A stretch of 64,000 bases of DNA from an uncultured delta proteobacterium (lineage in GTDB: Bacteria; Desulfobacterota; Binatia; UBA9968), in assembly GCA_963755715.1 (NCBI GenBank), contig CAVWLW010000025.1:1-64000 (forward strand). Direction: 5' to 3'. Position numbers and translations under genes: made by a program. Within the stretch, counting starts at the first letter, position 1. Every line of letters begins with the position of its first letter. This document shows, piece after piece, positions 15,045 through 22,691 of the stretch. Under the pieces are notes generated by a model, which ran no database searches, was not told where the DNA came from, and was given only the letters and a program-made list of their open reading frames with translations.

Positions 15045-15476
15045 ATGGCTTCAGGTGATTGGGATATTTTGGTCTGGCGGCGCGCCGACGATTTGCGCCG
15101 GCAAGCCGAGCGCATTCAGAGAAACTTTTTACAGATGGCGGTGGCCGCACGTTACCGCGTTCAGCAAGGTCGAAATTCGCGTTGGGAGCCGCCGGTCAAC
15201 GTCGTCGAGACGCAAAGCAGTCTTTGGGTCATGTCCGCGCTCCCTGGGGTCACGGCCGAGAATGTGAAAGTCGAATTGGACGGCAATGAATTGGTTATAG
15301 CGGGAAGACGACCACTGCCAGATTGTTGCCACGACGGTGAACTCAAGATTTGGGAGATACCGCTCGGGCAATTCGAGCGGCGCTTAACCGTTGTCGACGC
15401 TGAAAAAACCTTGTCCGTCGGCGACGTGGTCCTTCGGGATGGGTTGCTACTGATCGAGCTGAGGAAAAATTCATGA
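15045..15476 (+). CDS. Hsp20/alpha-crystallin small heat-shock protein
   Basis: [37 protein letters not shown]. Confidence 0.9.
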
Positions 15477-17900
15477 CAGCCGAAGAAAAAGAAAACACAC
15501 AAACAAAACCGCGCATTACCATTCCGCCCGGCGCATTGGCTATTTTGCCGTTGCGCAACACGGTGCTGTTTCCTTCGACCATTATGCCGCTGGTGGTTGG
15601 GCGGCGAAACAGCCTACAAGTCATGGAAGAGGCGGTACGCCAGGAGCTGGCCGTCGGTTTCGTTACGCAGATCGATGCCAGTGTCGACAAGCCGCAAGCC
15701 GCTGATTTGTACCCTGTCGGTACATCGGCCAGCGTGTTGAGAATGTTCGGTTTGCCGGATGGTCAACGGCAGGTGATTATTCAGGGGCAGCAGCGCTTCG
15801 AGATCAAGGAATTCATTCAAACGGATCCTTTCTTGGTCGCCCGTGTTTCGATGATCGAAGAAGTCGTGCCGCACACAAAAGACTTCGATGCGCGAGTGCT
15901 CCACTTGCGTCAGGAAGCGCTCAAAGCCCTGTCGTTGTTGCCGGCGCCGTTGCAAGAGCTGCGACCGACGATCGAACGGATCGAAAATCCGCTCGTGCTG
16001 ATCGATACCATCGCCTCAATTTTAGATTTGCCGGTCCAAGAAAAACAAGAGCTGTTGGCGATCCTCGATCCGGTCATTCGGGCGCAGAAGGTTTCAGAAA
16101 AACTGTCGGCGCAGATCGAGCTTCTCGAATTGAGTAAAAAGATCGGCGAAGAGACCAAGGAAGCGATGGATAAGACGCAGCGGGAATATTTCCTGCGCGA
16201 ACAACTGAAAGCGATCCAGAAAGAGCTCGGCGAAGAAAGCGGCCAGTCGGTCGAGGCCGGCGAGCTGCGGAAAAAGATCGCCGATGCGAAGATGCCGCCG
16301 GAGGTCGAGAAGGAAGCGCTCCGCGAATTGTCTCGGTTCGAGCGCATGCCGGAGATGGCCGCCGAACACTCGACCATCCGCACTTATCTCGACTGGATGA
16401 CCGAGCTGCCATGGAGCGTTTCGAGCGAAGAGCGGATCGATTTGCAGCAAGCGCGCAAGATCCTCGACGAGGATCACTACGGTCTCGACAAGGTGAAGAA
16501 GCGAATCATCGAATTTCTCGCCGTGCGCAAGTTGAAACCCGAGGGCAAGAGCCCGATTCTGTGTTTCGTCGGACCTCCTGGCGTCGGGAAAACTTCTCTC
16601 GGCCAAAGTATCGCTCGGGCGATGAACCGTAAGTTTGTCCGCCAGAGCCTGGGCGGCGTTCATGACGAGGCCGATATCCGCGGTCATCGACGCACTTACG
16701 TCGGATCGCTGCCGGGAAATATCATTCAGGGAATCCGCAAGGCGGGCACGAACAATCCCGTCTTCATGCTCGATGAGATCGATAAGCTCAATGCCAGTTT
16801 TCAGGGCGACCCGTCGGCGGCTTTGCTCGAGGTGCTCGACCCGGCGCAAAACTCGACATTTCAGGATCACTATCTGGCGGTGCCCTTTGATCTCAGCCAA
16901 GTCATGTTTATCGCGACCGCGAACGTGCTCGATACCATCCCGGCGCCGCTCCGAGACCGGATGGAAATCATTCAGCTCTCAGGGTACATCGAAGAAGAAA
17001 AGCTGGCGATCGCCAAGAATTACCTGATTCCACGGCAAACCGCGCAGAATGGTCTGGACCAAGGTGAAATCGGTTTTACCGACGAGGCGATTCGTGAGGT
17101 GATAAACTCCTATACGCGGGAGGCGGGGGTGCGCCAACTGGAACGGGAGCTAGGCGCGATTTGCCGAGGCGTGGCCACCCGGATTGCCGAAGGTCGCAAG
17201 GAACCGATCACGATCGAACGCGGCGCGGTCAGAGACTATCTCGGCCCGCAAAAGTTTTTCAACGAAGTCGCGCTACGAACCAGCCTGCCGGGCGTCGCCA
17301 CCGGGCTGGCGTGGACACCGGTCGGCGGCGATATATTGTTTGTCGAAGCGACCAAGATGCCCGGCAACGGTAAGCTCCAACTCACCGGCCAGTTGGGTGA
17401 TGTCATGAAGGAGAGCGCTCAAGCGGCGTTCAGCCTGATCAAGTCGCGCGCCGACTCCCTTGGCATCGAAGCTGAAGTTTTTCGCCAGCAAGATCTCCAC
17501 GTGCACATCCCGGCGGGGGCGATTCCCAAGGACGGACCGAGCGCGGGTGTTACCTTGTTCGTCGCGCTTGTTTCGCTGTTGCTCGATCGCCGCGTCAGCA
17601 ACGGACGTTGCAATGACCGGCGAGATCAGCTTGCGCGGTCTGGTGCTTCCGGTGGGTGGCATCAAGGAAAAGGTGCTGGCGGCCAAAAGGGCCGGACTTT
17701 CGCGAGTACTGCTGCCGGATCTGAACCAGCGGGATCTCGAAGACATCCCGCCCGCCGCGCTGGAAGGCATGCAGTTCGAATTCTTAAAGACCGTGGACGA
17801 AGCGCTCGCGCATGCTCTCGAACCCAGCGAGGATTCGAGTGCTATTCCAAGCAGCCGCAGCCGGGCGCGCGGCGAAGCGCAGCACGGACATCAGCGCTAA
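15473..17900 (+). CDS. lon: ATP-dependent Lon protease (frameshift at about 17603)
   Basis: LON N-domain, [17 protein letters not shown]; shifted frame continues [23 protein letters not shown] to TAA 17900. Confidence 0.95.
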
Positions 17901-20087: not shown

Positions 20088-21392
20088 TTAGAATATCTTG
20101 GGCTCCTCTAGCCGAGCTTCCAAAGAGGCGAGGGCCTTTTCGATGAGAGCGACGCGCCAGCGCAGTTCCTCCGGCGCGGGTAGGTCCGGTTGCCCGACCG
20201 GATAGTGAAACTTGCTGCCGCTCATAATCCTGCCGACGCCGACTTGAGCGGCGACATTGGCAAGGCAGGTGATCACCACCACCGGGATGCCCTTCTTTTC
20301 GATCTCTTTGGCGATCGTAGCGCCGCTACGAGTGCCGGTTCCTCACGTGGCGGTTAAAATTACGGCGTCGATACCGGCGCCGGCGATCTCCGCCGCGATG
20401 CCGGCGCCGAGCTCCGCCATCTTGCTCGGCATGGCGCCGGTGCCGGTGGTGACGAAATACTGGTCGTGAACCTTTTTAATCCGCTGACCGCTTTCCAATA
20501 CGCGCATGGCATCGAGCGGAACAAGTCGATCGGGATCTCGATCGACCGTGGAGGTGTCGTAGCCGGTATGCATGGCTTCGAATTCACCGTGTTTGAGATC
20601 GTTGCGCCCCTGGACTGAATATTTGAAATAGCGCGAGCCGCGCGAGCTTTCCAAGCGATCGGGATTGCCCTTCGGCACCAGGCCGCCTTCGGTGACCAGC
20701 GCCACGGTGGCGTCCGCCAAAGAAACAGTCAAATTTGGAATCGCGTGCGCTTGGGTCTCGATGCGCGGAATCTCGCTCTCGTACGATTGGCCGCTCAGCC
20801 TGGCCAGTAAAAGATCCGCGGCGCGGACATAATCCGGCTTGTCGGTTCTTATCGTAAAACGGCGCGGAATCGCTAAACAGTATTCCGCGCGAAAGTCTTC
20901 GATGGCCTTTTGGTCTTGCGCTATTAACCTTTCGACCAGCAGCGAATAACGTTTCAAGGTGTCCTGCATGGACGCCGCCGAGGCGCCGGTTTGAAGAACA
21001 AAAACGTGGCGGCCGATTTCTCGAGTGCCCGGGTTGTCTTCGTGCATGGCGGTGATCGCCGGGATGCGCCAGTTGTCGCGCACCCAACTGCATACTTTGG
21101 CGCAGGCGATGCCGTATCGACCGGCGTTAAAGGCCGGGCCGGCGAGAAATATGTCGGGGTGAAACTGATCGATCGCGGCGCCCATCGCTCGCAGCGCGTT
21201 TTCCTCGGCCTCATGAAAGTAGTTATCGCCGCAGGCAATTGTCGCGTATTCGACGCCGTGAGCTTTGAGAGCGTTTTCGAGCACGCTGCCGATGCCGACC
21301 GGCTGGGACAGAAAAAGGACTTCCTGACCGGCTTTTTCCTCGCCGCCGATGCCGGCAAAGAACTGGTTCAAATAGTGCAGCACCTTGATCAT
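20088..21392 (-). CDS. Glycine/sarcosine/betaine reductase selenoprotein B-like protein (Sec at UGA 20343-20345)
   Basis: HYLNQFFAGIGGEEKA, CGDNYF, GPAFNAGRYG, ALVTEGGLVPKGNPD, HTGYD; the frame continues through UGA: ILTAT-U-GTGTRSGATIAKEIEKKGIPVV. Confidence 0.9.
20310..20336 (-). promoter_or_regulatory. Bacterial SECIS-like hairpin
   Basis: GGC-AC-TCGTAGC-GGC-GCTACGA-TC-GCC; apical G-containing loop begins 18 nt after the UGA. Confidence 0.75.
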
Positions 21393-21404
21393 GCGAGTGT
21401 CTCC

Positions 21405-22691
21405 TTAGTTCTCATACTCGGCGCGAAAACCGCTGCGACCCATCTGGCTGTAGGAGGCGAAAAAGATCGTCGGATCAAAAAGGAACGGCAGATGGGGATC
21501 GTGGGTTGCTTTCAAATGAAGATCGATCTCCGCGCCGCCGATCACCGTCTCGAGCGGCGGAATATAGATCTTTTCCGAAACATTGCCCCGGCTGATCATG
21601 CCGCCGGCCTCTTTGGGATGATCGACCAGCGGACGCTCATAACCTTTCGGCCCATTGGACTCGTGCAACACGGCGGCAGTTTTTATGCCCTCGTCTTCGC
21701 AAGCCTTCAGCGTTTGCATGAAGTCGACGGTGCCGTTGCCGGTTCCCTCCATTAGGGCAACCGCGCCTTCGGCGCCGAGATTGCGCGCCAGTCGCGCCAC
21801 CCATAACCCCATCTTTTTTTTCTGCTCGAAGCTATCGTTGTAGCCGCGCGACAGGATCACGCCGAGGAAGTTGATGCTTTGACCGTGACGCGCGAGCAAC
21901 TCGGCGATAAACGGGTTGTCGCAGTGCAAAGCGGTCGGAATCTTCCGTTCGCTTTTATAGTTGCCGCTGACAATCGCGCCGTCGAAGAATTCCGCGGGAT
22001 GCACGAAAGTGGGCAAGGTTTTCGACACCTCTTCGCCGTAATAAAAAGTGCGCGCGCAAGTAAGCTGGCTCTGCACTTGATAAATCAGCACCACTTTGGG
22101 CAAAGCCGAATTGACTGGCGGCAAAGAAATGAGCCGTTTTTCCGCCTCGGCGCCGGATCGCTCGGCCGGTGCCAGAAAGCGGGCGCAGCGTAAGGCCATA
22201 ATCCTCAGCGTTTGGTCGAAAGCAACGTTGGAGACCGACGACTCCGGCGTTAGCGAGAGCACGAGATGAAAGCAATCCGAGCCATAAGAATAGGGCGCGC
22301 CGATGCCTGACATGTCGACGATGCCTTCGCGCGGTTTCTCGATCGGTGTCAGCGAGTCGAAGTGAGGGAAGCGGCCGGTCACGGTAACAAGAAGATTTTT
22401 GAAGCGCACGGTTTTGCCCGTGCCGACCAATTCTGCGGCGCCCTCAAAGCCGGGGAAGGTCGAACCGGGTCCGGCTGGTTTGGCGATCGGCATGACCGCG
22501 TCCAAAACGTGAACGATACGTTTTGGCTCGCCGGGACGGGCGATTTGAAAATCGACGTGAACGCCAGGGCTTAAATCTTTCAACAGTTCATGGAAATCGT
22601 TCACGCACAGCGACAGGGTTTTGCCGTCGAAACCGGTGCGCTCATCCCACTGAACTTGTTCGAGCCGATAATCAAAGAGCTGCAGTTCCAT
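21405..22691 (-). CDS. GrdE/GrdI-like reductase component B partner subunit
   Basis: IARPGEPKRIVHVLD, REGIVDMSGIGAPYS, HPAEFFDGAIVSGN, HCDNPFIAEL; co-oriented 12 nt upstream of the selenoprotein gene. Confidence 0.85.
   Translation of the reverse strand: MELQLFDYRLEQVQWDERTGFDGKTLSLCVNDFHELLKDLSPGVHVDFQIARPGEPKRIVHVLDAVMPIAKPAGPGSTFPGFEGAAELVGTGKTVRFKNLLVTVTGRFPHFDSLTPIEKPREGIVDMSGIGAPYSYGSDCFHLVLSLTPESSVSNVAFDQTLRIMALRCARFLAPAERSGAEAEKRLISLPPVNSALPKVVLIYQVQSQLTCARTFYYGEEVSKTLPTFVHPAEFFDGAIVSGNYKSERKIPTALHCDNPFIAELLARHGQSINFLGVILSRGYNDSFEQKKKMGLWVARLARNLGAEGAVALMEGTGNGTVDFMQTLKACEDEGIKTAAVLHESNGPKGYERPLVDHPKEAGGMISRGNVSEKIYIPPLETVIGGAEIDLHLKATHDPHLPFLFDPTIFFASYSQMGRSGFRAEYEN

Follow-up and report, generated by a model that had tools for sequence, protein, structure and literature searches.

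A protein B selenoenzyme pair from Binatia and its probable place in a scattered, GrdD-less system of the glycine reductase type

Introduction

The DNA analysed here (the window) is a stretch of 64,000 nucleotides, positions 1 to 64,000 of contig CAVWLW010000025.1 (C25 below) in assembly GCA_963755715.1, from an uncultured delta proteobacterium of the Binatia lineage UBA9968. At positions 20088 to 22691 it holds two adjacent genes, E and B, whose products belong to the protein B families of glycine, sarcosine and betaine reductases. On balance, our analysis favours reading this pair as the substrate-specific protein B module of a modular, genome-scattered system of the glycine reductase type, in which a C2 unit would pass through GrdA and GrdC, probably to acetyl-coenzyme A (acetyl-CoA). 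The substrate is very likely something other than glycine or sarcosine, in line with an original prediction made from the window alone. The pair itself is an uncharacterised clade within a known family. The new part is a GrdD-less system with several protein B modules in an oxygen-respiring lineage, for which our literature search, with most subscription papers outside its reach, found no published description.

In the known enzymes, the selenolate of protein B is converted to a carboxymethyl selenoether, and the C2 unit finishes as an acetyl thioester on protein C, according to the accessible parts of two reports (PMC10298544, PMC13188914).

Shared partners elsewhere in the genome

The original prediction described the pair as an orphan, with no grdA, grdC/D or thioredoxin genes in the window. 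The second statement is accurate: tblastn with GrdA, GrdC, GrdD, TrxA and TrxB references gave no match on contig C25. The pair is nevertheless no orphan, because contig C69 of the same genome encodes grdC (507 bits, cut-off 450) followed by a selenocysteine-containing grdA (65241-67096; motif TECFV-U-TAAG, CxxU, where U is selenocysteine, Sec), and because grdA occurs in 20 of the 23 genomes that carry the window clade. The other three are 65%, 84% and 93% complete and fragmented. Clade carriers were counted among 61 searched genomes at a threshold of at least 62% identity.

Four further E/B pairs are encoded in the window genome, on C64 (UGTCSRS), C56 and C57 (both UGTSTRS) and C14 (UGSSTRC); none keeps UxxCxxC intact. 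Thioredoxin and thioredoxin reductase homologues are also present, as are heme-copper oxidase genes. Across the 61 genomes, grdA is found in 47 of the 53 with a B gene and is absent from six of the eight without one. It is a single match in 48 of its 49 carriers, and B matches number 1-10 per genome. At 7 of 42 grdC loci an E-family gene directly follows grdC-grdA. We consider it likely that the window pair is one of five protein B modules using the GrdA and GrdC encoded on C69.

Three other observations concern genes of these families. A lone GrdE-family gene of the C64 type lies on C63 (75206-76510, plus strand), with no adjoining B gene and downstream of two NMT1-type binding-protein genes. 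On C26 (about 98570-99470, minus strand) there is a short PrdB-like selenoprotein gene with TGA read-through in FPF-U-PACHRS and a strong hairpin; no PrdA-like neighbour was seen among the open reading frames (ORFs) scanned there. At 21 of the 42 grdC loci, grdA faces a convergent gene for an NMT1/SsuA-type binding protein (e.g. L009:5596-7164), whose ligand could hint at a substrate.

The missing GrdD

In the clostridial enzyme, the thiol that finally accepts the acetyl group belongs to GrdD. The full-genome search that had been proposed for the host recovered the selenocysteine genes, grdA and grdC, but not grdD: with the GrdD model and a GrdD reference, the window genome gave only weak matches to PlsX, and plsX, which is present, is the sole match to the model. 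Among genomes of the genus, grdD was found in 0/31 and grdC in 27/31. Among genomes of the class, grdD was found in 0/201 and grdC in 21/201, six of the latter being single-contig and 97-99% complete. The model does score above its cut-off in 5/301 genomes of the phylum and in 2/5 other genomes. The lineage-wide absence of GrdD is the unusual part of the system.

GrdC differs in parallel. After its last strand, a tail of 37-43 amino acids (aa) is present at 9/9 loci with a separate GrdD, whereas the tail is only 6-17 aa long at 42/42 readable loci without GrdD (44 examined, two unreadable, some from the same genome). The GrdC tail may be a docking element for GrdD. A complex prediction of the 35-aa tail with GrdD scored 0.02 against a mark of 0.32 and carries no weight either way. 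A natural GrdC-GrdD fusion of 851 aa, in a Bacillota metagenome-assembled genome (MAG; G063, loci L130/L156), has neither the GrdC tail nor the N-terminal segment of GrdD.

In alignment, one cysteine of GrdC falls on the catalytic cysteine of FabH. The predicted structure of a relative's GrdC (predicted local distance difference test, pLDDT, 89) matches thiolase, OleA and FabH structures, and a PDB sequence search with GrdC gave only distant FabH matches. A His-for-Gln replacement in GrdC (ELHN versus EMQN) was rejected as a marker of GrdD loss, since 3 of 10 GrdD-containing loci have it too. In the window genome pta was not found and ackA is represented only by a 100-residue piece.

Two further loci show other gene arrangements. 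In a Chloroflexi MAG (L120), one cluster holds two E genes, two B genes (TGT-U-GTGTRC), grdC, a thioredoxin-like gene and grdA, and grdD was not found in the genome. A replicon of Photobacterium sp. DA100 (L127), a gammaproteobacterium, has a full canonical grd cluster with trxB, trxA, two grdA, C, D, E and B (UGTCTRC).

The window pair

The coordinates and strand of the two-gene unit agree with those first reported, as does its match to reductase component B. Its features are as follows.

21405..22691, minus strand: grdE/grdG/grdI-family gene (protein B alpha subunit), 428 aa, not a proprotein (PF09338)
20088..21392, minus strand: grdB/grdF/grdH-family selenoprotein gene (protein B beta subunit), 434 aa with Sec350 (PF07355, TIGR01918)
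21942..21968, minus strand: loop SGNYKSERK, residues 242-250, at the pyruvoyl-cysteine site, with Tyr245 at the position of GrdG Cys242 (alignment with GrdG, GrdE and GrdI)
21401..21407, minus strand: Shine-Dalgarno-like TAAGGAG overlapping the E-gene stop, 8 bases 5' of the B-gene ATG (sequence)
20343..20345, minus strand: in-frame TGA, codon 350, read as selenocysteine (TGA in 24/24 colinear sequences; Sec genes)
20325..20345, minus strand: motif U-G-T-G-T-R-S (canonical U-G-T-C-T-R-C), preceded by TAT, not TST (orthologs and references)
20310..20336, minus strand: hairpin 3' of the TGA resembling a selenocysteine insertion sequence, upper stem TCGTAGC-GGC-GCTACGA (folding and conservation)
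20265..20267, minus strand: Cys376, clade-invariant, a possible stand-in thiol near Sec350 (TCL in 30/30 clade members; structure model)

Both proteins score above the cut-offs of the protein B families: the E product matches PF09338 (E=7.5e-94), and the B product matches PF07355 (E=1.9e-105) and TIGR01918 (371.8 bits, cut-off 65). The B product falls below every substrate-specific cut-off, scoring 330.9 bits against 602 for GrdB (TIGR01917), 354.8 against 800 for GrdF and 362.7 against 775 for GrdH (NF040795); for PrdB (TIGR04483) the score is 89 against 300. The E product likewise scores 195 against 780 for GrdG and 100.8 against 675 for FarE (NF053623). The sarcosine reductase models were NF040793/NF040794, with cut-offs of 780 and 800. 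Identities are 30.5% to GrdG and 32.5% to GrdI for E, and 37.6% to GrdH and 36.4% to GrdF for B.

The window clade is well supported in the phylogenies. In a tree of 96 B sequences it forms a long branch (support 1.0) that is weakly sister to GrdH (FastTree 0.91). In the E tree it has a support of 0.94 and does not pair with GrdI. Deep branches are poorly resolved in both trees. The host is non-clostridial, as first stated: a B gene 97% identical to the window's was found in Ca. Binatia, and most of 40 related loci belong to Binatia or Deltaproteobacteria MAGs. The E gene adjoins B at 33 of 38 loci, and the two occur as a bare cassette across genomes.

Where GrdG has the pyruvoyl precursor Cys242, the E protein has Tyr245 and no cysteine, which bears out the claim that the partner lacks the cleavage residue. 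Cys242 of Clostridioides difficile GrdE has been shown to form the pyruvoyl group, according to the accessible text of PMC9908766. The pattern GN[YF]KxERK matched 118 of the 120 best E homologues, leaving two unmatched. The loop at this site differs between paralog clades, each clade having its own version, which suggests that it helps to set the substrate.

PDB sequence searches gave no significant match for B (best E=0.56) or for E, and a fold search with the B model returned only generic Rossmann- or receiver-like matches to residues 1-175 (best Z 11.5). A promoter and terminator scan showed no excess over shuffles. Four soil or rhizosphere RNA libraries contain short contigs over parts of both genes and their neighbours, one of which (240 bases, three differences) spans the TGA and hairpin; DNA carry-over is possible for all of these.

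Several genes in related loci and in the window were seen in passing. Four proteins of 774-798 aa as far as the TGA (P0021, P0050, P0066 and P0078) are apparent GrdE-GrdB fusions. In a subclade at 63% identity (L113, L115, L116, L117), an opposite-strand ORF of 560-610 aa stands head to head with the E gene; it presumably encodes a protein akin to B12-binding radical SAM proteins. At 15473-17900 (plus strand) the window contains what we take, from its motifs, to be a Lon protease gene, with an apparent frameshift near 17460-17550 that is probably an assembly indel.

Selenocysteine and the active site

The TGA at codon 350 is, judging from its conservation, almost certainly read as selenocysteine, with the hairpin that follows as the probable recoding signal. 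The colinear set consists of the window and 23 chosen gap-free orthologs. All 24 sequences have TGA at codon 350, and codons 351-428 are free of stops in all of them. Mean amino-acid identity to the window protein is higher after the TGA (0.78) than before it (0.72). Read-through is therefore not a matter of chance. Synonymous differences per conserved codon fall to 0.19 in the first eight codons after the TGA, compared with 0.45 upstream. The hairpin has a predicted energy of -14.4 kcal/mol over 45 bases counted from the TGA; its upper stem and loop correspond to codons 355-359 and are identical in 24/24 sequences. In paralogs from the genome, stem pairs have changed on both strands of the stem, among them the pair at the Ser/Cys356 codon. 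The genome encodes tRNA-Sec, selA, selB and selD, in accordance with the predicted selenoprotein; selD itself contains a TGA and is split by an apparent frameshift.

The reported motif U-G-T-G-T-R-S, with both cysteines lost, is a property of the clade: TAT-U-GTGTRS occurs at 21 of 22 close ortholog loci, and the remaining locus is cut by a contig end. In a survey of 47 distinct full-length B sequences, the motifs were TAT-U-GTGTRS (29), TST-U-GTSTRS (8), TGT-U-GTGTRC (2), VAT-U-GTCSRS (1) and U-GTCTRC (7). The last is found in all seven loci outside Binatia and Chloroflexi, including Peptoclostridium acidaminophilum GrdF, Enterococcus gilvus GrdH and the Photobacterium locus. The STUG serine, named as a candidate carbonyl source in the accessible part of PMC10838667, has likewise been lost from the window clade. 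In an AlphaFold model (pLDDT 95, predicted template modelling score 0.69), residue 350 opens a helix (351-365) after a strand (343-347). Cys376 directly follows another strand (371-375), which probably lies next to the Sec strand.

Proposed mechanism

The selenolate of Sec350 would attack C2 of a substituted acetate, X-CH2-COO-. As the pair has neither the pyruvoyl cysteine nor the STUG serine, X would be a group that can leave without activation through a Schiff base. This step would parallel those on betaine (GrdHI) and fluoroacetate (FarEB). The carboxymethyl group would then move to the Sec of the shared GrdA, since no cysteine remains in the B motif. GrdC, with a thiolase/FabH fold and the FabH catalytic cysteine kept, would cleave the selenoether and take the acetyl group. 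The absence of GrdD favours an exit as acetyl-CoA over acetyl phosphate, and whether acetyl-CoA is in fact the product we regard as close to an even call. Housekeeping thioredoxin would re-reduce GrdA. The likely purpose would be carbon scavenging in an oxygen-respiring bacterium, not the ATP gain of Stickland fermentation.

The loop at the Cys242 site offers a doubtful hint about X. Its basic residues K246 and R249, set against the aromatic-rich loop of GrdI, might slightly favour a substrate with a second anionic group; the hint is weak because Lys250 is common to the references.

The original prediction supposed that the motif changes might mean other chemistry. None is needed at the B subunit: once the motif cysteines are lost, this subunit is all the more likely to depend on GrdA.

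Alternative explanations

Several points weigh against a shared-partner system ending in acetyl-CoA. No grdA was detected in 6 of the 53 B-carrying genomes, including G009, G022 and G044, which are 93-95% complete. The window genome's own grdC is frameshifted near its 3' end, while grdC is intact in most relatives; an assembly error is the likely cause, because similar indels affect selD, the C14 pair and the lon gene of the window, and decay is the alternative. The GrdD-less genomes do not represent many independent events, since they come mostly from one order, together with one Chloroflexi genome. The FabH-type cysteine marks no CoA route, because the GrdC proteins of GrdD-containing organisms keep it. 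Lack of ackA was rejected as a lineage-wide sign, with a match in 38/61 relatives (intact in 35). Beyond the E partner, no true gene recurs at more than 9 of 38 loci (ORF clustering of 38, gene picking in 28), and the neighbourhood was rejected as a clue to the substrate. Finally, Cys376 may serve as an internal resolving thiol.

These points bear differently on the alternatives. The same modular system could release its acetyl group as acetyl phosphate (or as acetyl-ACP, on acyl carrier protein, or free acetate), with PlsX, another protein or water replacing GrdD. The presence of plsX as the only GrdD-model match in the window genome, the intact ackA genes of 35/61 genomes and the clostridial position of the accepting thiol on GrdD would suit this route. 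We still think it unlikely, given that the GrdC tail is missing from every readable GrdD-less locus, that pta was not found in the window genome and that several grdC carriers, including the single-contig genomes G037, G038, G040, G050 and G053, have no ackA match. Less probable again is a stand-alone enzyme resembling D-proline reductase, which would correspond to the other chemistry of the original prediction; here Sec would attack the substrate and the selenoether would be resolved by Cys376 or an external thiol, giving a reduced product without GrdA or GrdC. Such an enzyme would explain a two-gene cassette without conserved neighbours, the presence of Cys376 in 30/30 clade members at the end of a strand that probably lies beside the Sec strand, and the three clade carriers in which grdA went undetected; genes of the family, finHI, are induced in anaerobic riboflavin breakdown, as far as the accessible text of a preprint reports (bioRxiv 2026.02.13.705874). 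Yet those three carriers are the incomplete and fragmented genomes described above, A and B co-occur strongly over the 61 genomes, and the window protein has the length of two-domain GrdB rather than the short PrdB form (89 against 300 bits). FarEB, too, is encoded away from grdA and is nonetheless proposed to use GrdA in the part of PMC10838667 available.

A diverged betaine-type reductase, acting on glycine betaine or a close onium analogue such as dimethylsulfonioacetate, is very unlikely. GrdH is the best specific NCBIfam model for the B product (362.7 bits, against 354.8 and 330.9), the clade is its weak sister in the B tree (FastTree 0.91), and GrdI is also uncleaved. That score is nevertheless far under the GrdH cut-off of 775, identity to GrdH (37.6%) barely differs from that to GrdF (36.4%), and the E tree gives no pairing with GrdI. 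Both GrdH-type references keep UGTCTRC, the basic loop stands in place of the GrdI loop SGSFMPCSSKW, and clustering and inspection revealed no recurrent nearby BCCT-type transporter. It is barely credible that translation ends at the TGA or that the pair is a decaying relic: databases do give most family members about 349 aa, ending at the TGA, and related genes of the assembly have frameshifts, but 24/24 sequences conserve the TGA, the hairpin and the coding frame beyond them, the genome has the Sec machinery, and natural cysteine-containing full-length homologues exist (P0016, P0103, P0151). A protein B module that loads a shared GrdA and GrdC thus remains the reading we prefer.

Comparison with known systems

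The closest parallel is FarE/FarB of Cloacibacillus porcorum MFA1. As described in the accessible text (PMC10838667), it is a GrdE/GrdB-family pair whose selenoprotein B lacks CxxC and whose E subunit lacks the processing cysteines and, like GrdI, is no proprotein; it is encoded away from grdA and is proposed to feed shared proteins A and C, which in Cloacibacillus serve several protein B pairs. Cysteine loss and an uncleaved partner are therefore not unprecedented: the rewired active site first reported for the window pair is real in its cysteine losses, but as a novelty it is anticipated by FarEB and GrdI. The window pair is no ortholog of FarE/FarB (101 bits against 675 with the FarE model; FarB compared by description), and no conserved antiporter or radical-SAM gene adjoins it. 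The hosts differ as well: that of FarE/FarB is an anaerobe with grdABCDEX, according to the part of a 2025 review available, whereas the window host has heme-copper oxidases and no detected grdD.

GrdI/GrdH (NF040795; Enterococcus gilvus reference locus) shares the uncleaved alpha subunit and, under the proposed mechanism, Sec attack without a Schiff base, and is weakly the nearest characterised clade in the B tree. It differs in that GrdH keeps STUGTCTRC, in its operon (trxB-trxA-grdA-C-D-I-H-BCCT in the reference) and in the alpha-subunit loop. GrdE/GrdB and GrdG/GrdF of P. acidaminophilum and C. difficile have the same families, Sec position and hairpin position, and homologues of their partners GrdA (CxxU) and GrdC are encoded in the window genome. 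In contrast, the window system lacks the pyruvoyl cysteine, the STUG serine, CxxC, a detected grdD and the GrdC tail, and has scattered genes and five B modules.

Two systems are more distant. finH/finI of Clostridium scindens are two genes of the glycine/betaine/sarcosine reductase family in a non-amino-acid context, riboflavin breakdown; compared by the description accessible in the preprint (bioRxiv 10.64898/2026.02.13.705874), they lie in a riboflavin-induced neighbourhood, none of whose genes recurs at the window. PrdA/PrdB cleaves a C-N bond with Sec on a homologous domain and makes no acetyl phosphate. PrdB, however, is short, keeps UxxC and has pyruvoyl-PrdA as its partner.

Implications

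Glycine reductase chemistry, with its cleavage of a selenium-carbon bond, is treated as an ATP-making tool of anaerobic fermenters. We tentatively raise the possibility of an undescribed selenium-dependent carboxymethyl-cleaving pathway in oxygen-respiring Binatia, in which several cysteine-less, pyruvoyl-free B modules, each having a substrate loop of its own, load one GrdA, a GrdD-less GrdC passes the acetyl group to CoA, and the window module acts on a substituted acetate new to the family, possibly one that carries a second anionic group, of the iminodiacetate, S-carboxymethyl, sulfoacetate or phosphoglycolate type.

Metagenome studies will misassign such genes, because many of the 120 closest homologues are automatically labelled 'glycine reductase' or 'sarcosine reductase' and the B protein is usually cut at the TGA. 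A natural A, B and C set without GrdD makes two matters testable: the role of GrdC alone, and where the acetyl thioester first forms. If the proposed reading is true, oxygen-respiring soil bacteria would have a system with exchangeable modules that cleaves substituted acetates at C-N, C-S, C-O or C-halogen bonds. Its targets could include natural osmolytes, chelators or pollutants, and it would be a new route from X-CH2-COO- to acetyl-CoA in soil.

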